A DNA stretch of 6,192 nucleotides from a virus (IMGVR_UViG_2563366944_000009), one strand, 5' to 3'. Shown: positions 1 to 6,192, counted from the first letter of the stretch. Notes: generated by a model not told the origin, from the letters alone. A program made the numbers and translations.

Positions 1-66
1 TCAAAATCGGTGGAGCTGCATGACAAAGTCATCGGGCATTATCTGAACATAAAACACTATCAATAA
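1..66 (+). CDS. insB: IS1 transposase InsB, C-terminal fragment (5' end outside the window)
   Basis: In-frame translation of 1-63 gives SKSVELHDKVIGHYLNIKHYQ followed by TAA at 64-66, which is the recalled C-terminus of IS1 InsB. Confidence 0.8.
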   Translation, partial: SKSVELHDKVIGHYLNIKHYQ

Positions 67-81
67 GTTGGAGTCATTACC
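1..81 (+). mobile_element. Right-hand end of an IS1 insertion sequence (the element continues left of the window), ending in its terminal inverted repeat at about 59-81
   Basis: Bases 1-81 match the recalled 3' end of IS1, finishing ...CACTATCAATAAGTTGGAGTCATTACC, the complement of the GGTAATGACTCCAACTTATTGAT terminal repeat. The putative 9-bp target duplication would be 82-90 (ttatttgag) but cannot be verified without the other end. Confidence 0.85.
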
Positions 82-139
82 TTATTTGAGTTAGAGCAAA
101 TAAATTGTGATGAGAGCAATGGTATCAATCAGCTACTTG

Positions 140-157
140 ATGGATTTTAAAATCCAT
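140..157. repeat. Perfect 18-bp palindrome ATGGATTTTAAAATCCAT in the AT-rich cos-flanking DNA
   Basis: Read directly from the sequence; self-complementary about its centre. Its function is unknown; a protein-binding site in the packaging region is one possibility. Confidence 0.4.
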
Positions 158-184
158 ACCTATTTAATTCTTATACTGCGCGCA

Positions 185-203
185 GTGCTTTCCCCGCCTC
201 GCC
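185..203 (-). other. cos cohesive-end sequence of the P2/P4 family
   Basis: gtgctttccccgcctcgcc at 185-203 is the exact reverse complement of GGCGAGGCGGGGAAAGCAC, the 19-nt cohesive end I recall for P2, 186 and P4. It sits just downstream of psu, as in P4. Confidence 0.7.
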
Positions 204-234
204 CGCCCGCTTTGCGGGGCGGTTTTAATGCAGT
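196..234 (+). terminator. Candidate intrinsic terminator (GC-rich imperfect hairpin plus TTTT) overlapping cos
   Basis: cccgc-tttg-gcggg stem followed by gcgg and TTTT. Oriented for transcripts entering from the left across cos. Confidence 0.3.
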
Positions 235-304
235 TGTACTGACACGCTCAGACCGCGCCGGGAATGGCACGGTTTACAGAAAATGAGGCAGGAAAACGCA
301 TGCA

Positions 305-337
305 AAGCCATGCACCTTATCGATGCATGGCTTTTTT
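305..337 (+). terminator. Candidate rho-independent terminator
   Basis: 10-bp perfect stem aagccatgca (305-314) / tgcatggctt (324-333) with a 9-nt loop, then a T-run at 332-337. The stem is palindromic so it also folds on the minus strand, where the U-tract is poorer. Confidence 0.5.
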
Positions 338-366
338 CAGTAAAACGGGCGGATTTTCGGGGAGTT

Positions 367-939
367 TTACACAGACTGACGTGATGCCAGTTGCGCACTT
401 TTACGCGAAAAAATCATGTTCTGCGCAGGGGTGAATTTTTCACGGCTGTCATCCACCGAAGCCGCGTCAGGCCTGAATCCGATGGTCGTTAAAATGTCGC
501 TATCCTGTGCGGAATAATTAATTTTTTCCCCCTTCGCAAGCCAGGACAGGAGGGCTTCACGCAGGGCATCTGTGGCACGCTGTATGGCACAGTTTCGGGC
601 AATGGCCGTCAGCTCACTGTAGCCCATCAGCTCCGGTGCCAGTGCGGCCGCCAGTGCTGTGCCGTGCTGCTGCATAAAATCATTCAGCCGGTCGCGGATG
701 CTGATGTGCTGAACGGCTTCATGCGAACGAATATAACGACCGGCAGCCTGATTCACCTGCCATTTTCTGACTTCGATAATATTGCGTAATTCGTCCAGGC
801 GACTGACGTTTCTGCCTTCTCCTGACAGAAGCCGCAGATATTCCTGTTCGGCCGCAGCCAGCTCATTTTTGCGTTGCAGCCATGCTGCTTTGTTATTCTG
901 ACAGGTGTCAAAGGCCTGCTGTAAGGCTGTGCTTTCCAT
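367..939 (-). CDS. psu: Psu-like polarity suppression protein (capsid decoration / Rho antagonist of P4-type satellites), 190 aa
   Basis: Last gene of a minus-strand three-gene operon ending next to cos. The 190-aa length and position match P4 Psu. ATG at 939-937, TAA at 369-367. Confidence 0.75.
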   Translation of the reverse strand: MESTALQQAFDTCQNNKAAWLQRKNELAAAEQEYLRLLSGEGRNVSRLDELRNIIEVRKWQVNQAAGRYIRSHEAVQHISIRDRLNDFMQQHGTALAAALAPELMGYSELTAIARNCAIQRATDALREALLSWLAKGEKINYSAQDSDILTTIGFRPDAASVDDSREKFTPAQNMIFSRKSAQLASRQSV

Positions 940-1012
940 CGTTATCTCTTTCTCATCATGCTGAAGAATAAAAATACGGTGTGCGGCGACGGCCGGGGTT
1001 AACCGGCAGCCC

Positions 1013-1513
1013 TCATTCCAGACGCAGCGAATATGATTGTGTTTTTAACCGTACTGGCGGCAGTTCCTGTTTTTCATGCAGGCTTTCTGCCAGTTCGTCC
1101 GGCGTGACCGGGCGGACAATGAAGCGGTTGATGGTCTGAAGCGTTTTAAACACCAGACCACAGCCCGGCTCCGTGCACACATAAAAACGTTCGGTGACTT
1201 CCTGAGACAGACGCCGCGATGTTCTTGACAGTGCAAGGCCTTTACATCTCCGACAACAATATCCGGTAACAAGCATTCTTTTCGGGCGTTTCATACTGCC
1301 GGAGGCAGAAGTCAGTGAATCGCGGTATCTCTGTTTGCCTGAAATGTATTCCATTCCTGAATCTTTACAGTCAGAGAAAAAGCTTTCACTCGCTTCAAAT
1401 GTCGCAGAGCAATAAATATTCCGGCACTGTGCAATCATTATCTTGGTGCCATCGTCCATGAAATGTGCGCGACGGGTGTGAGCAACATGTCCACACGACG
1501 GGCAGTAAATCAT
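1013..1513 (-). CDS. delta: Delta-like late-gene transcriptional activator, a tandem duplication of the Ogr-type zinc finger, 166 aa
   Basis: Two C-X2-C-X22-C-X4-C motifs in the translation (CPSC...22...CRNIYC and CRRC...22...CTEPGC). Length 166 aa as in P4 Delta. The ATG at 1513-1511 overlaps the sid TGA (ATGA overlap). Confidence 0.85.
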   Translation of the reverse strand: MIYCPSCGHVAHTRRAHFMDDGTKIMIAQCRNIYCSATFEASESFFSDCKDSGMEYISGKQRYRDSLTSASGSMKRPKRMLVTGYCCRRCKGLALSRTSRRLSQEVTERFYVCTEPGCGLVFKTLQTINRFIVRPVTPDELAESLHEKQELPPVRLKTQSYSLRLE

Positions 1514-2244
1514 GACAGCAGTCCTCTGGCCTTAAGCTCTGCTCCCTGCTGGTCTATTTTGTCCTGCCACACCTTGCGCTGTGCCGGTGTGCCTGCCACC
1601 TCATAATCCATGTGCGGGAGTGTTGCCGCTGACAGTCCGGTCAGCCGGAGAACCGGCTCACCGCTGAGGCTGATTTGCATCTGTTTTATTTTCTGTTCCA
1701 GCGATGATTTCACCTGCTGCATGACAGCCTTTTCCGGTGCGATGTAGCCCTGATGGCCGGTGGTGTTGGCGAGCGGATTTTCCTGTACCAGGATGCTCAG
1801 ATGCATTGCCCGGACAAGCGCCTCACAGGTTTCATTCAGGGCGTGTTCCAGCTCATGCTCTGCATACAGACTCAGAAGGTGATGATGTGCCTTCCGGTAG
1901 GCGGTGGCCGTGCTGTCACACGCCCCTTTCAGGCGTTCGCGTTCAAAATTCAGCACCACGGCCAGATTGTCATATTCCTGTACCAGCTCCCGGCGTGCCA
2001 CGCGCTCAATGTGGCGCTGTTTCAGCTCATCGCTCAGGACACCACCGGCTGCACGAAAGGCCGTGCGCCAGTCGTCAGCGTCGTTTCCGTCGGCCTGCGC
2101 CAGCGCATTTTTTTCCTGCTCTGCCCGTTCAATGGCCGTGACGGTCTCATCCATCAGGCGGGCGTTCTCAAGATGGGCGGCTCTGGCCTTTTCCAGTTGT
2201 GCCAGCGCGGGTTGCAGATATTCAGGGATGGTGTTGTCAGACAT
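1510..2244 (-). CDS. sid: Sid-like capsid size-determination (external scaffold) protein, 244 aa from the preferred ATG
   Basis: First gene of the late operon, with a long predicted helical, charged sequence. The ATG at 2244-2242 has GAGG 9 nt upstream and gives 244 aa, the P4 Sid length. The track's GTG at 2262 has no Shine-Dalgarno sequence. Confidence 0.7.
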   Translation of the reverse strand: MSDNTIPEYLQPALAQLEKARAAHLENARLMDETVTAIERAEQEKNALAQADGNDADDWRTAFRAAGGVLSDELKQRHIERVARRELVQEYDNLAVVLNFERERLKGACDSTATAYRKAHHHLLSLYAEHELEHALNETCEALVRAMHLSILVQENPLANTTGHQGYIAPEKAVMQQVKSSLEQKIKQMQISLSGEPVLRLTGLSAATLPHMDYEVAGTPAQRKVWQDKIDQQGAELKARGLLS

Positions 2245-2316
2245 TTTCCGGTTCCTCGTCACTTCAGGTTAAGAAAATTGTGACGTACACCGGACAACAA
2301 CACGACGCATTGCAGA

Positions 2317-2334
2317 TGTGCCAGCCCTGACACA
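2317..2334. promoter_or_regulatory. TGT-N12-ACA dyad, candidate Delta/Ogr activator site of the leftward late promoter (Psid-like)
   Basis: TGTgccagccctgacACA read directly. Its centre lies about 80 bp upstream of the sid start codon, consistent with an activator site near -55 of a late promoter. Confidence 0.5.
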
Positions 2335-2414
2335 GGAGACTCATCCTCAGACCGGCAAGCCAGGAAAAGGTCGCAGGAAAAACCGGCTTACTGTTTGTTT
2401 TTTTTATATTTTAC

Positions 2415-2518
2415 TGTTCACCTCTGTTCACAATAAGAAAAAAGATAAGTAATACAGTAAGTTAAAGGGTGAACAATCGCAGTAATGACTGTTCACCGTC
2501 TGTTCACCACTGTTCACC
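2415..2518. repeat. Iteron array, six copies of TGTTCAC(C/A): candidate ori-type binding sites for the alpha replication protein
   Basis: Copies at 2415-2422, 2425-2432, 2468-2475 (inverted), 2490-2497, 2501-2508 and 2511-2518; the last three are spaced 10-11 bp apart. P4 ori and crr are known to carry TGTTCACC octamers bound by alpha. An AT-rich tract follows at about 2520-2620. Confidence 0.65.
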
Positions 2519-2676
2519 CGTTGATGGGCTTTTTGTGCTGTTTATTACTTTTTATTTTTATTAATTCACTGAAATAAATAAGAAAAAACAATTTGTATTT
2601 CACTATAATTTTTTCCAGCTCCTTCCAGAGCGTTTTAAAGCTATCTGGCGCTGATGTACAAAAAATGCACAGCCAT

Positions 2677-2694
2677 TGTAAGGCTGCCGGAACA
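2677..2694. promoter_or_regulatory. TGT-N12-ACA dyad, candidate Delta/Ogr site of the rightward late promoter (PLL-like) upstream of vis
   Basis: TGTaaggctgccggaACA read directly, centred about 110 bp upstream of the vis ATG. Confidence 0.45.
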
Positions 2695-2796
2695 AATCCC
2701 CCCTGTTGCGTCTGCCGAAAATATTCACAAAATAAAGCGCTACCCGAAGCCGGACGGACTTATCCGGTGCTGTATGGACATTAACGAGGTAGCCCG

Positions 2797-3063
2797 ATGC
2801 AAGCTGTTTTTTCTTCCCCGTCTCCCGCCCCTGTGACGCCACTGATGCCGCTGCCGGACATCACACAGGAGCGTTTTTTACGTCTTCCGGAAGTGATGCA
2901 CCTGTGCGGCCTGTCACGCTCGACCATCTACGAACTCATCCGTAAGGGGGAATTTCCGCCGCAGGTGAGTCTTGGCGGTAAAAATGTGGCCTGGCTGCAC
3001 TCTGAAGTCACCGCATGGATGGCCGGCCGCATTGCCGGACGCAAACGGGGGTACGACGCATGA
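2797..3063 (+). CDS. vis: AlpA/Vis-family small DNA-binding regulator and excision factor, 88 aa
   Basis: The translation contains the AlpA-type helix-turn-helix core ([50 protein letters not shown]). GAGG lies 7 nt before the ATG. The 88-aa length and first position after the divergent late promoter match P4 Vis. Confidence 0.85.
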
Positions 3064-3157
3064 TGATGCCTGTTCTGCAAAAAGTCCCTTTTTCTGGCTT
3101 GCCTTTTTCCGGCATTTGCGGATATAGTTTTTCCGCTGTCGCAAAATCGGCAGCCGG

Positions 3158-3183
3158 GCGTGGAAACCCGAGCAATCTAACGG
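3158..3183 (+). promoter_or_regulatory. Upstream copy of a candidate antisense-RNA target site (GCGTGGAAAC ... ATCTAACGG)
   Basis: Direct repeat of the element at 3410-3450. Both are approximately complementary to 3364-3385. Confidence 0.35.
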
Positions 3184-3191
3184 CGACATAT

Positions 3192-3213
3192 GACGCGCCA
3201 TGCGTCTTTTTTT
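3192..3213 (+). terminator. Weak hairpin plus T7 run, a possible attenuator just after the upstream target site
   Basis: gacgc-gccat-gcgtc followed by TTTTTTT at 3207-3213. The stem is only 5 bp. Confidence 0.25.
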
Positions 3214-3329
3214 GTGTCGCAATCAACGCCACAGAGCGCCAGATTATGGTGTGGTGTGTGGTCAGTCGAGCAGATGGAACTCCGTGCATCCTGCCCGCGT
3301 CCGCTCATTATGCCGCAGAGTCAATGGTA

Positions 3330-3400
3330 GCTCAGGCGGGGCAGCCTCCGGGCTGGCCGGTATCCGTTAGAGCCGGTATTTCCACCCCCGTCTGGGCTAT
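3330..3400 (+). ncRNA. Candidate c4/CI-type antisense immunity RNA; boundaries are approximate
   Basis: The core CCGTTAGA...TTTCCAC (3364-3385) is near-complementary to GTGGAAAC...ATCTAACGG, found both upstream (3158-3183) and overlapping the icd ribosome-binding site (3410-3450). This mirrors the P1 c4 and P4 CI arrangement. No protein-coding signal spans this 400-bp gap. Confidence 0.3.
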
Positions 3401-3409
3401 CGCCATCGA

Positions 3410-3450
3410 GCGTGGAAACTCCGGCGATAGCGTAACCTGCTATCTAACGG
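3410..3450 (+). promoter_or_regulatory. Downstream target-site copy overlapping the Shine-Dalgarno sequence of the Icd-like gene, lying in the loop and 3' arm of a 9-bp hairpin
   Basis: GCGTGGAAAC at 3410-3419 and ATCTAACGG at 3442-3450, running into GGAGG at 3449-3453. A stem gctatcgcc / ggcgatagc flanks the first motif. Confidence 0.4.
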
Positions 3451-3461
3451 AGGCTGCCATC

Positions 3462-3659
3462 ATGGCTACAACCCTTACCCCTTCACACCCTGAATTTGTC
3501 TTTGTGTTTGCGGCTGTCCGTCGCGCAGACCGTCATCCCCGTATCTGCATGCTTCGCACCGTCGCCGGTGATGAACGCAGTGCCCGCCGTTCCCTTGTCC
3601 GTGACTATGTGCTCTCCCTTGCTGCCCGTCTGCCGGTGGTGGAGGTGTCCCGTGCGTAA
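3462..3659 (+). CDS. Icd-like host cell-division inhibitor family protein, 65 aa
   Basis: GGAGG lies 8 nt upstream of the ATG. The translation [65 protein letters not shown] fits my recollection of the short Icd-like proteins found in P4-like prophages. The 214-aa track ORF 3015..3659 is an upstream extension through non-coding DNA. Confidence 0.7.
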
Positions 3660-3939
3660 TAAAAAAGCCCCTCAGACCGTCTCAGCGCGTCATGACGCCC
3701 GTGAACACCTCAGCATTGAGGCTTACCATAAGCTCAACCGCGCCAGCGCCGTATCCCAGTTTGTTGGGGGTGATTTGATTCACCGTGAACTCTCCGGCCT
3801 GCATCAGCTCTACATTCCGCATATTTTCAGCTACCTGAATGAAGATATTGATTTTGTGCTGAATGAGCTGAAAGCCAAAGGCCTGTGCCGCGATTTTCTC
3901 GCCCAGCAGAAAGACCGGGGAGACAAGACGCATGTTTGA
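3652..3939 (+). CDS. Small hypothetical protein, 95 aa, in the position and of about the size of the P4 epsilon anti-repressor; start is uncertain
   Basis: GTG at 3652 with GGAGG 6 nt upstream, overlapping the icd stop. The frame is open back to 3496, but that would overlap icd by 160 nt. No recognisable motif. Confidence 0.5.
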
Positions 3940-4387
3940 TTTTCCCCAGCCCGGTGAGATTTACCGTTCTGCCGGTTTTCCCGATGTGGCCGTGGTCGGC
4001 ATTCTGGAAGACGGTATTCCGTGGGAAATGCCGTACCGCTGCCCGGACATTGTCTGGAACCCGTACCGCCGTAAATTCAGTATCCTTGTGCGTATCCTCG
4101 CTGACGGGCGCACCACAGACATCCCGCTGGGGCGTTTTCTGCGGGAATTTACCTGTGACCGTCCTGACCTGTTTAAACGCAGCCCCGTAAACCGGCATGC
4201 GGTACTGAAAGAAATGGCCGGAGACCCGGAATTACAGAAATGGCGGGAGAAATATCTGGATATTTACCCGCAGGCCCCTGTTCCGGTCAGCCGGGCGGCA
4301 CCGGTGGCGCGGGAATGGCGGGAAATTCCCCGCACGGAGCCTGACCCGGAAATCACCCCGGATAACAGTTACCGCAATTATCTGTAA
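3932..4387 (+). CDS. Hypothetical protein, 151 aa (same length as P4 orf151)
   Basis: Its ATG overlaps the preceding stop (ATGTTTGA), suggesting translational coupling. Codon usage is consistent with its neighbours. Function unknown. Confidence 0.6.
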   Translation: MFDFPQPGEIYRSAGFPDVAVVGILEDGIPWEMPYRCPDIVWNPYRRKFSILVRILADGRTTDIPLGRFLREFTCDRPDLFKRSPVNRHAVLKEMAGDPELQKWREKYLDIYPQAPVPVSRAAPVAREWREIPRTEPDPEITPDNSYRNYL

Positions 4388-4460
4388 TTAAAAAACGACA
4401 CCCGAAAAATTAAATGTGCGTATTCGCGCAGGGATACGCACGTCTTCAGGAGACGCAGAT

Positions 4461-4526
4461 ATGCCTTATCAGTTAATGCAACCGGCACGGAATGCAGTCA
4501 TCTGTCACAGGGAGGAAAACAAATGA
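4461..4526 (+). CDS. Possible 21-codon upstream ORF ([21 protein letters not shown]) coupled to the next gene
   Basis: AGGAG lies 8 nt before the ATG at 4461, and the TGA at 4524-4526 overlaps the ATG at 4523 (ATGA). Too short to assert as a gene. Confidence 0.25.
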
Positions 4527-4843
4527 AAACACCCTTACCGCCCGTCTTACGTGCTGCCCTTTACCGTCGCGCTGTCGCCTGTGCCTGGCTGACCGTGTGC
4601 GAACGTCAGCACCGCTACCCGCATCTCACCCTTGAGTCACTGGAGGCGGCCATCGCCGCTGAGCTGGAAGGCTTTTATCTGCGCCAGCACGGTGAGGAAA
4701 AAGGGCGTCAGATAGCCTGTGCCCTGCTGGAAGATTTAATGGAATCCGGCCCCCTGAAGGCCGCGCCGTCGCTGTCCTTTCTCGGGCTGGTTGTGATGGA
4801 TGAACTCTGTGCCCGTCACATAAAAGCGCCGGTACTGCACTGA
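4523..4843 (+). CDS. Hypothetical protein, 106 aa, immediately upstream of the primase
   Basis: GGGAGG lies 8 nt before the ATG. The stop TGA overlaps the primase ribosome-binding site AAGGAG. Function unknown. Confidence 0.6.
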
Positions 4844-4857
4844 AGGAGAACAACACC

Positions 4858-6192
4858 ATGAAAATGAACGTAACCGCCACCGTCAGCCATGCGCTCGGCC
4901 ACTGGCCGCGTATTCTCCCGGCGCTGGGGATTCAGGTGCTGAAAAACCGTCATCAGCCCTGTCCGGTCTGTGGCGGGAGTGACCGCTTCCGTTTTGATGA
5001 CAGGGAGGGGCGCGGCACCTGGTACTGCAATCAGTGTGGTGCCGGTGACGGCCTGAAACTGGTTGGAAAGGTGTTTGGTGTCTCTCCGTCCGACGCGGCC
5101 GCAAAGGTGGCTGCCGTGACCGGCAGCCTGCCCCCGGCTGACCCGGCAGTGACGGCCGCCGCCGTTGCTGAAACAGACGCTGCCCGGAAGAACGCCGCCG
5201 CACTGGCACAAACCCTGATGGCAAAAACCCGTCCCGGAACCGGTAACGCCTACCTGACCCGCAAGGGCTTTCCCGGCCGGGAATGCCGGATGCTGACCGG
5301 CACACACAGAGCCGGTGGCGTGAGCTGGCGCGCCGGTGACCTTGTGGTGCCACTGTATGACGACAGCGGCGAACTGGTTAACCTTCAGTTAATCAGTGCT
5401 GACGGCCGTAAGCGCACCCTGAAAGGCGGACAGGTCAGGGGCACCTGTCACACCCTTGAAGGACAGAATCAGGCCGGAAAACGTCTGTGGATAGCGGAGG
5501 GATACGCGACCGCACTTACCGTGCATCACCTGACCGGTGAAACGGTGATGGTGGCGCTTTCTTCCGTGAACCTCCTTTCTCTGGCCAGCCTTGCCCGGCA
5601 GAAGCATCCGGCCTGTCAGATTGTCCTTGCCGCAGACCGTGACCTCAGCGGTGACGGCCAGAAAAAAGCCGCCGCAGCCGCAGATGCGTGTGAGGGCGTT
5701 GTTGCCCTGCCGCCGGTCTTCGGTGACTGGAATGATGCCTTCACGCAGTACGGCGGGGAGGCCACCCGTAAGGCCATTTACGATGCCATCCGGCCACCGG
5801 CTGAAAGCCCGTTCGACACCATGAGCGAAGCAGAGTTTTCCGCCATGAGTACCAGCGAAAAGGCCATGCGTATCTATGAGCATTACGGCGAGGCGCTCGC
5901 GGTCGATGCCAACGGCCAGCTTCTGTCCCGCTATGAAAATGGTGTCTGGAAGGTGCTGCCGCCACAGGACTTTGCCCGGGATGTGGCCGGGCTGTTTCAG
6001 CGTCTGCGCGCGCCGTTCTCCTCCGGGAAGGTGGCCTCCGTGGTGGACACCCTGAAACTGATTATTCCGCAGCAGGAAGCCCCCTCCCGCCGCCTGATTG
6101 GCTTTCGTAACGGCGTGCTCGACACGCAGAACGGCACGTTCCATCCGCACAGTCCGTCACACTGGATGCGCACCCTGTGCGATGTGGATTTC
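4858..6192 (+). CDS. alpha: P4 alpha-type primase/helicase replication protein, N-terminal 445 codons (3' end beyond the window)
   Basis: AAGGAG lies 9 nt before the ATG. I translated the frame by hand to the window edge and found no stop. It has an N-terminal zinc ribbon (CPVCGGSDRFRFDDREGRGTWYCNQCG) and a Toprim-type motif (RLWIAEGYATALT ... VLAADRDLSGDG). Absent from the track only because it has no in-window stop. Confidence 0.9.
   Translation, partial: MKMNVTATVSHALGHWPRILPALGIQVLKNRHQPCPVCGGSDRFRFDDREGRGTWYCNQCGAGDGLKLVGKVFGVSPSDAAAKVAAVTGSLPPADPAVTAAAVAETDAARKNAAALAQTLMAKTRPGTGNAYLTRKGFPGRECRMLTGTHRAGGVSWRAGDLVVPLYDDSGELVNLQLISADGRKRTLKGGQVRGTCHTLEGQNQAGKRLWIAEGYATALTVHHLTGETVMVALSSVNLLSLASLARQKHPACQIVLAADRDLSGDGQKKAAAAADACEGVVALPPVFGDWNDAFTQYGGEATRKAIYDAIRPPAESPFDTMSEAEFSAMSTSEKAMRIYEHYGEALAVDANGQLLSRYENGVWKVLPPQDFARDVAGLFQRLRAPFSSGKVASVVDTLKLIIPQQEAPSRRLIGFRNGVLDTQNGTFHPHSPSHWMRTLCDVDF

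Follow-up and report, generated by a model that had tools for sequence, protein, structure and literature searches.

What kind of element does this viral stretch of DNA come from, and is its immunity region native or borrowed from another phage? The window, meaning the whole 6,192-nucleotide stretch that was analysed (IMGVR_UViG_2563366944_000009), had been described in an initial annotation as the conserved core of a P4-type satellite phage, from cos to the primase, in which a c4/Icd-type module would replace kil, cI, eta and orf199. Our reading, to which we give a probability of about 96%, is that a close variant of phage P4 resides in a chromosome as a P4-like satellite prophage and that the window covers its right-hand two thirds.

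Megablast against P4 (X51522/NC_001609) returned a single piece, window 204-6192, with 97.5% identity (E = 0). With the cos junction closed, window 177-6192 was collinear with P4 27..1 followed by 11624..5635, at 97.4% identity over 6,018 columns. This alignment contained only three indels, each of 1 bp and all intergenic, and window 2568-6192 was indel-free. The proposed core was thus confirmed but its left limit was not: 177-6192 is P4, whereas 82-176 is not P4 core and includes the 3′ end of a NACHT gene at 82-150. Protein identity to P4 was 97-100% for psu, delta, sid, vis, epsilon, orf151, cnr and the first 445 amino acids of alpha, and the reading frames of psu, delta, sid, vis, eta/kil, epsilon, orf151, cnr and the visible part of alpha were intact, without stops or frameshifts. 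Family profiles were matched for Psu, Ogr_Delta (twice), Phage_AlpA, Phage_ASH, Derepression, DUF5375 and Zn_Ribbon_Prim with Toprim and D5_N in Pfam, and for phage_ICD_like in NCBIfam. No evidence contradicting the identification as P4 was found. At 97.4% identity to P4 itself, the stretch is, as had been anticipated, mostly known biology, and from cos to the primase gene it is an ordinary P4 copy, differing chiefly in a handful of bases that probably determine the range of relatives open to silencing by its RNA repressor.

P4-like satellite prophages of E. coli have been surveyed previously (Moura de Sousa and Rocha 2021, PMC8628076; Rousset et al. 2022, PMC9122126), and their core set consists of psu, delta, sid, alpA/vis, epsilon, alpha and int in conserved order (PMC8628076). 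In the window, sid, delta and psu are adjacent and co-oriented on the minus strand, and AlpA/Vis, epsilon and the alpha primase follow in that order on the opposite strand, alpha being cut by the window end. The window shares with P4 (NC_001609/X51522) the gene order and sizes, cos, the ori iterons, the late-promoter dyads, PLE, the scaffold of the CI RNA and the nesting of kil in eta.

An identity of 97.4% over the whole shared length would also suit laboratory phage P4, sequenced as virion or plasmid DNA rather than as a natural prophage variant. We rejected this origin, which has next to no probability, on three grounds: 150 substitutions separate the two sequences, including an immunity switch and a 45-bp patch; a NACHT gene remnant and IS1 lie to the left of cos, where P4 has its gop region (gop/beta/cII); and E. 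coli AF3 has window 82-6192, at 99.97% identity (2 mismatches in 6,111 nt), as a chromosomal island by ssrA. The same segment was 99.8% identical in E. coli SCU-172, and in both strains the context was ssrA-int-(IS1)-NACHT-cos-psu...alpha-ypjA. These ssrA islands share the window's immunity allele, and their hotspot likewise lies between int and psu, by cos. P4 encodes a 440-aa integrase, whereas the integrase in these nearest relatives has 402 aa and the element lies at ssrA. More widely, at least 80% of the window was present in 954 of 5,426 complete E. coli genomes.

The left flank of the window also departs from P4. Positions 1..81, outside the P4 core, are the right end of an IS1, terminating in the terminal inverted repeat ...GGAGTCATTACC; all 81 positions agreed with IS1 copies found across many phage records, and also with the annotated IS1A of E. 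coli AF3. On the left, the surviving cargo region is bounded by this end. The adjoining 69 nt (82..150, plus strand) are the last 22 codons and stop of a NACHT-domain cargo gene (LFELEQINCDESNGINQLLDGF, then the stop), and their translation matched without a difference the C-terminal end of WP_001183326, a NACHT protein of 652 aa in AF3 and SCU-172. The rest of the gene, which is whole in those two islands, is absent here. The remnant belongs to the cargo of the satellite's variable int-psu hotspot; left of cos, the usual defence-gene cargo (NACHT in the nearest relatives) is reduced to these last 69 nt. Relative to AF3, 1,907 bp are missing directly beside the IS1 end, a layout that fits an IS1-adjacent deletion of 1.9 kb, and the IS1 end with the adjacent deletion shows that the element is damaged at least in its cargo region.

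The core packaging region of cos, common to P2-like helper phages, occupies 178..259. It holds the 19-nt cohesive-end sequence at 185-203 (GTGCTTTCCCCGCCTCGCC), which in reverse complement equals P4 nt 1-19 exactly, as had been expected for P4 cos. Window 178-236 was 96.6% identical to Peduovirus P2, with weaker matches in other P2-like phages extending to window 259 and beyond.

The abutment of the IS1 end on a truncated cargo gene, together with the missing 1,907 bp, raises the alternative of a cryptic prophage, that is, a decaying, non-mobilisable P4-like remnant for which IS1 insertion and deletion were the first steps of domestication. The integrase, the att sites, crr and the alpha C-terminus (the last 332 codons) lie beyond the window limits, which leaves room for this view, and the function of this copy is taken from its identity with P4. 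Nevertheless, we consider decay unlikely. No stop or frameshift interrupts any of the eight complete genes or the portion of alpha inside the window, cos and the iterons have been kept, and the deletion ends 35 nt short of the conserved cos region, having removed only non-essential cargo; the closest relatives, AF3 and SCU-172, carry a full integrase upstream and a full alpha. The hotspot genes of P4 itself have likewise been described as accessory (PMC9122126). For a close variant of P4, the collinearity, the intact frames, the exact cos end and the six ori iterons together suggest, as far as sequence can tell, that the element should work as P4 does.

All of the genes that the initial annotation had listed were present with the sizes and order it gave them. 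Three genes, psu, delta and sid, lie on the minus strand. The psu gene (367..939, 190 aa) encodes a protein identical to P4 Psu at 189 of 190 residues (Pfam Psu, 295.7 bits), which we take to be the polarity suppression protein, an anti-Rho capsid decoration protein. The delta product (1013..1513, 166 aa) matched P4 Delta at 161/166 residues and Pfam Ogr_Delta in two stretches, and is presumably a late-gene transactivator built of two Ogr-like zinc-finger halves. The sid product (1510..2244, 244 aa; 241/244 identical to P4 Sid) is presumably the external scaffold that fixes the small capsid size, and the same gene in AF3 bears the PGAP name 'capsid size-determining scaffold Sid'. Profile searches had been proposed as a check on these assignments: Psu, Ogr_Delta and the zinc ribbon and Toprim domains of the primase were recovered, but Sid had no match in the Pfam or NCBIfam HMM searches.

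Upstream of sid, the Psid control region (2279..2334) showed no differences from P4 and contains two TGT-N12-ACA dyads, at 2279-2296 and 2317-2334. TGT-N12-ACA is the type of motif bound by Ogr/Delta activators; which of the two dyads is used at Psid we can only infer. A pattern search found five such dyads in the window against 1.3 expected, four of them inside 2279-2694. The dyad upstream of vis (2677..2694, plus strand), also kept in P4, has a position that makes it a candidate Delta/Ogr site for PLL, the late promoter.

The ori region (2415..2518) contains six type-1 iterons (TGTTCACC), presumably, by analogy with P4, binding sites of the alpha protein. The P4 annotation has its 'ori type 1 repeats' at matching positions and in matching orientations; in the window five are exact and one, unlike its P4 counterpart, is degenerate (TGTTCACA at 2425-2432). 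A further difference from P4 is a 45-bp patch (2609..2652), an unrelated sequence of the same length that stands in place of P4's three 'ori type 2' decamer repeats and differs from P4 9175-9218 at about 30 of 44 positions. An inverted-repeat search found an imperfect palindrome in it (CCAGAGCGTTTTAAAGCTATCTGG). Both versions of the patch are common in E. coli (373 vs 441 genomes).

The genes to the right of ori lie on the plus strand. The vis product (orf88, 2797..3063, 88 aa) was identical to P4 at 87 of 88 residues (Pfam Phage_AlpA, 74 bits) and is presumably an AlpA-type excisionase and regulator. Epsilon (3652..3939, 95 aa, GTG start; 93/95 identical to P4, Pfam Derepression 170 bits) we take to be the helper-prophage derepression protein. 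The adjacent orf151 (3932..4387) encodes a protein identical to P4 ORF151 at 148/151 residues, for which searches of Pfam and NCBIfam found no family. The product of orf106/cnr (4523..4843) was identical to that of P4 throughout (106/106; Pfam DUF5375, 211 bits) and is presumably the copy-number regulator. Alpha (4858..6192), of which the window holds the first 445 of 777 amino acids, was identical at 441 of these 445 and carries the Pfam domains Zn_Ribbon_Prim, Toprim_3 and D5_N; we take its product to be the primase-helicase-origin binding protein.

The remaining genes lie in the immunity region. Eta (orf199, 3060..3659, plus strand, 199 aa; Pfam Phage_ASH 100 bits) starts where vis stops, the two overlapping at ATGA, and covers the whole immunity region, with kil (3462..3659, plus strand) nested inside it in the same frame. 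A 600-nt PGAP CDS occupies the eta position in AF3 and SCU-172. Kil is an Icd-like protein of 65 aa with an amino-acid sequence identical to that of P4 (NCBIfam phage_ICD_like, 76 bits), and eta residues 146-193 accordingly match the same profile. In P4, kil is the first gene translated from PLE transcripts, and the roles of both kil and eta have been described (PMC10111431).

The immunity region itself lies between vis and epsilon at about 3099-3460 on the plus strand. A consensus scan located a PLE-like sigma-70 promoter inside eta (3099..3128, plus strand; TTGCCT-18-TATAGT), identical in P4, and the isrK/SeqA RNA model begins 7 nt downstream of it. The leader, or 'SeqA RNA' (3135..3212, plus strand; Rfam isrK 72.5 bits, gathering score 50), consists of two hairpins that form the first CI target, followed by an intrinsic terminator at 3192-3213 (terminator scan). 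The target segments, on the plus strand, are b1 (GUGGAA, 3160-3165) and a1/seqA (UCUAACGG, 3176-3183). Rfam c4-a1b1 scored 45.8 bits at this upstream target, 0.9 below its gathering score of 46.7, and 44.1 bits in P4 itself. The CI immunity RNA, encoded by cI within 3320..3407 (plus strand), matched the C4 antisense RNA family over its full length (Rfam C4 RF01695, 76.2 bits, gathering score 45, E = 3.8e-14), and the homologous place in P4 scored 74.9 bits. Its loop carries the specificity modules a′ (CCGUUAGA, seqB, 3364-3371) and b′ (UUCCAC, 3380-3385). The second CI target (3412..3454, plus strand) comprises b2 (GUGGAA, 3412-3417) and a2/seqC (UCUAACGG, 3443-3450), the latter running into the Shine-Dalgarno sequence GGAGG of kil (3450-3454), whose ATG is at 3462. 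The loop segments of 8 and 6 nt are perfectly complementary to both targets.

These Rfam C4 and c4-a1b1 matches, the Icd-like ORF and a moderate enrichment of differences from P4 at 3000-3600 are what a foreign module of the P1 kind would also produce, had it replaced kil, cI, eta and orf199. All four are present, however. The region aligns to P4 without a gap, and where it diverges most, over 371 nt (3100-3470), identity is still 92%; P4 has the same C4, isrK and c4-a1b1 matches at homologous coordinates. Orf199/eta and kil keep intact, in-frame coding sequences, and P1-family phages match at only about 70% over part of the region. We therefore rejected foreign replacement of P4 immunity, which is exceedingly improbable. 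Since the same Rfam matches occur in P4 and Kil matches phage_ICD_like, P4's native immunity region is itself a c4/Icd-type module, and the initial annotation had given two names to one thing. Its view that variation lies in the immunity module and in the small early genes also did not hold in that form: the small early genes were 98-100% identical to P4, and the changes in the immunity region concentrate in the specificity bases.

The P4-type region nonetheless resembles that of P1, and P1, P7, N15, P4 and phiR73 have been grouped together (PMC7567579). The C4 antisense RNA of P1/P7 (RF01695/RF03163) and the CI RNA of P4 and the retronphage phiR73, which belong to Rfam clan CL00128, are both processed small RNAs with two loop segments, two upstream and two downstream targets, the last of which extends over the ribosome site of a gene of the Icd-like kind, and a specificity altered through compensating base changes. 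They differ in outcome, which in P4-type elements is premature termination of the replication operon and in P1/P7 is control of an antirepressor.

For a close variant of P4, the steps of its life cycle can be carried over from P4 biology, on which there is further literature (PMC9122126, PMC8628076, PMC7567579). Epsilon would derepress a P2-type helper, and Delta would switch on Psid and PLL in the satellite as well as the late genes of the helper. Sid would then force small capsids, Psu would decorate them and block Rho, the helper terminase would cut the shared cos, and alpha would prime and unwind DNA at the iterons. Lysogeny would be kept by RNA, not protein: PLE transcripts starting near 3135 would be processed to the CI RNA, whose loop segments would pair with the upstream (3160-3165, 3176-3183) and downstream (3412-3417, 3443-3450) targets. 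In P4 the leader is known to be processed to a stable RNA of about 70 nt, and termination is known to depend on CI (PMC4825925, PMC10111431). Pairing would cause early termination and cover the kil ribosome site, so that epsilon, cnr and alpha would stay silent.

Within that scheme, this element differs from P4 in its specificity bases. Segment a reads UUCACAGG/CCUGUGAA in P4 and UCUAACGG/CCGUUAGA here, and segment b reads GUGAGA/UCUCAC in P4 and GUGGAA/UUCCAC here. Base-by-base alignment showed that module a has changed at 4 nt and module b at 2 nt in each of three places (CI, seqA and seqC), so that coordinated, compensating changes in the CI RNA and both targets preserve complementarity; 18 of the roughly 34 immunity-region substitutions fall on specificity bases. 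Both modules also covary in all three places among ten natural E. coli alleles, with 99.3% of cells paired and 9 of 14 pairs changing on both sides, compared with at most 54% paired in controls slid by 1-3 columns. Heterologous pairing between CI and target with P4 is predicted to meet mismatches at 4 of 8 and 2 of 6 positions. As the compensating changes fall on specificity bases and keep complementarity, the element is probably heteroimmune to P4: its CI RNA would silence its own kind and not P4, nor would that of P4 silence it.

We compared the window with public phage records by megablast and found that nucleotides 204-6192 match P4 (X51522 / NC_001609 11624-5635) as a single piece with 97.5% identity. 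Because the P4 record is linear and starts at the cohesive end, the cos junction was closed in silico before realignment. The match to P4 then begins at window position 177 and comprises 6,018 aligned columns at 97.4% identity, with 151 mismatches and 3 gaps; the three indels are each one base long and all intergenic. The reading frames of the window are all open and nearly identical to those of P4, with identical amino acids at 189 of 190 positions in Psu, 161 of 166 in Delta, 241 of 244 in Sid, 87 of 88 in Vis, 93 of 95 in epsilon, 148 of 151 in orf151, all 106 of orf106/cnr, and 441 of 445 in alpha as far as the window end. A profile search matched the families Psu, two Ogr_Delta fingers, AlpA, Phage_ASH, Derepression, and DUF5375, as well as the primase zinc ribbon, Toprim, and D5_N in alpha. 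Sid and orf151 matched no Pfam or NCBIfam model and were therefore identified by their identity to P4. The collinearity, the near-identical proteins, the agreeing profiles, and the iterons and dyads found in place confirm the P4-type anatomy, from cos to the primase, that the initial annotation had described. Its main interpretation was right, and this biology is already known. The differences from P4 are clustered in three regions, namely the immunity specificity bases, a patch at 2609-2652, and everything left of position 177.

Window positions 185-203 are the exact reverse complement of P4 nucleotides 1-19, the 19-nt cohesive end. The packaging signal is common to satellite and helper (PMC9122126), so a cos core resembling P2-like phages is expected; the core at 178-259 matches P2-like helper phages, with P2 96.6% identical across 178-236. 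Right beside the cohesive end, at 203-222 (+), is a GC-rich hairpin (CCGCCCGCTTTGCGGGGCGG) followed by TTTT, which P4 also has and which is oriented such that it would terminate transcription leaving the cargo hotspot. Six alpha-binding iterons (TGTTCACC) lie at 2415-2518, placed as in P4. One is degenerate: the second type-1 iteron, at 2425-2432, reads TGTTCACA in place of TGTTCACC. The divergent control region contains TGT-N12-ACA dyads of the Ogr/Delta type at 2279-2296, 2317-2334, and 2677-2694. Between the candidate dyad of the late promoter PLL and the AT-rich side of ori, P4 has three 'ori type 2' decamers, whereas the window has at 2609-2652 an unrelated 45-bp patch of equal length, which contains an imperfect palindrome at 2625-2648. 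Neither version of the patch is much commoner than the other: they occur in 373 and 441 of 5,426 E. coli genomes. An alignment artefact was considered for this patch and rejected, as each version is intact in hundreds of genomes. A hairpin with an 8-bp stem (GTGCGTAT...ATACGCAC) was spotted, by eye only, at 4424-4449, where 135 nt separate orf151 from cnr.

The initial annotation had further proposed that a c4/Icd-type module replaces the kil, cI, eta, and orf199 genes of P4. This proved wrong: the region from vis to epsilon aligns to P4 without a gap, and the two sets of terms are two names for the same thing. The eta/orf199 frame (3060-3659, 199 codons) starts with an ATG overlapping the vis stop codon (ATGA), and in near-identical E. 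coli loci PGAP labels this coding sequence 'host cell division inhibitor Icd-like protein'. Nested in the eta frame is kil (3462-3659, 65 aa), identical to P4 in amino acids and matching NCBIfam phage_ICD_like at 76 bits; the early promoter PLE is also internal to eta. Rfam models matched C4 at 3320-3407 (76.2 bits against a gathering score of 45), isrK at 3135-3212, and c4-a1b1 at 3122-3174. The C4 model detects the antisense immunity RNA CI, and the isrK model detects seqA, part of its upstream target. The same three models match the P4 reference at homologous positions, C4 scoring 74.9 bits there. Secondary accounts in the literature (PMC4825925; PMC10111431) describe the P4 region in the same way. 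The leader at 3135-3212 scores higher than P4's own with the IsrK model of Salmonella Gifsy-1 (72.5 versus 60.8 bits), because its first hairpin is fully paired in the window (GCUGUCG/CGGCAGC) and has a C-C mismatch in P4. The small early genes, which had also been taken for variable parts, are 98-100% identical to those of P4. In the P4 reference records a protein of 137 aa named 'cI' is still annotated (RefSeq calls it a 'transcriptional repressor'), although the repressor is an RNA, and NC_001609 carries no annotation of eta/orf199 or kil. This outdated annotation probably misled the earlier proposal. In NC_001609 the 137-aa coding sequence ('cI gene product, transcriptional repressor') spans 8168-8584, over the CI RNA region.

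Within this shared architecture, 18 of about 34 substitutions in the immunity region form six coordinated blocks in which perfect complementarity is kept. The CI loop reads CCGUUAGA in module a' (3364-3371) and UUCCAC in module b' (3380-3385), compared with CCUGUGAA and UCUCAC in P4. The matching bases are present in the upstream target, with GUGGAA at 3160-3165 and UCUAACGG at 3176-3183, and again in the downstream target, with GUGGAA at 3412-3417 and UCUAACGG at 3443-3450, the latter running into the GGAGG of kil. In P4, the two targets both read GUGAGA and UUCACAGG instead. The coordinated changes keep each CI matched to its own targets, so the window element and P4 likely do not repress each other.

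We then aligned eight more natural E. coli alleles (L067-L074), spanning the identity range of a search that gave 876 full-length E. coli immunity regions, with the window and P4 (alignment A1, ten sequences). Among these ten, the 8-nt module takes four or more forms and the 6-nt module three or more, combined in seven ways. Both targets match their own CI loop in every sequence, except for one upstream-target mismatch in O157 Z869. Across the ten alleles, 99.3% of the cells in the pairing between CI and the upstream target are standard pairs, and 9 of the 14 pairs are changed on both sides; when the partner is displaced by 1-3 columns as a control, the paired share drops to 38-54%. This natural allelic series argues strongly, on comparative grounds, for the known pairing of CI with its targets. 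GPEC1209 combines the long module of the window with the short module of P4, while MS20654 has the reverse, and such mixed natural combinations suggest recombination between modules.

A pattern scan of viral contigs for the CI loop, its specificity bases left unconstrained, gave no match. A shorter CI-loop pattern gave 61 loci in genome contigs, almost all of them in unrelated phyla and due to chance resemblance to a GC-rich, hairpin-like pattern. P4 was the only close match to the immunity region in the phage collection, which does not include phiR73. The principle of compensating specificity changes has already been published for P1/P7 and P4/phiR73 (cited in PMC7567579); what may be new is how the two modules are combined across natural populations. 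A more far-reaching reading, to which we assign a probability of roughly 0.6, is that immunity specificity differs from P4 at both modules and that E. coli satellites of the P4 type may rely on a small combinatorial code; its reshuffling in nature would let satellites, whether co-resident or incoming, evade repression by one another.

The mechanism proposed for the window element is carried over from P4 by sequence identity. Epsilon would derepress the helper, Delta would transactivate the late genes at the dyads, and Sid would redirect capsid size. Psu is predicted to decorate the capsid and inhibit Rho (PMC12360218), and the shared cos would be used for packaging. Alpha would replicate the element at the iterons, with Cnr limiting. 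The prophage would be maintained because PLE transcripts terminate prematurely in a CI RNA-dependent manner, a block that PLL transcripts are expected to bypass through eta translation.

The nearest relatives of the window lie in E. coli: a chromosomal island next to the tmRNA gene ssrA in strain AF3 shows 2 mismatches in 6,111 nt, and SCU-172 has the same island (int through alpha, then ypjA) at 99.8% identity. In both strains the arrangement is int - NACHT gene - cos - psu ... alpha - ypjA. The interval between int and psu is a defence hotspot of P4-like satellites (PMC9122126; PMC8628076). In the window, the right end of an IS1 (1-81) abuts the satellite cargo region at 81/82 and is followed by a NACHT gene remnant (82-150, +), the last 69 nt, or 22 codons plus stop, of the gene for the 652-aa NACHT-domain protein WP_001183326. 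In AF3, the same IS1 lies downstream of int and is followed by a NACHT gene that is intact, and 1,907 bp next to the IS1 end (9082-10988 of the AF3 locus, L004) are missing from the window. With the left IS1 end outside the window, we infer an IS1-adjacent deletion, ending short of cos, as the simplest reading. The window copy has lost the NACHT cargo gene that its closest relatives hold in the hotspot. The whole window is found as a single piece in no record of the complete-genome collection; 954 of 5,426 complete E. coli genomes, about a sixth, hold at least 80% of it.

Few phage satellites are as well characterised as P4, and the window offers little discovery value. Its value is mainly corrective, in recognizing one module under two names and an outdated cI protein annotation, and in the covariation support. 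Two modest points are left. One is a probable switch of immunity specificity, fitting a two-module natural allelic series; the other is a probable IS1-mediated loss of defence cargo, the loss of the NACHT gene being an example of turnover in the cargo of a satellite.
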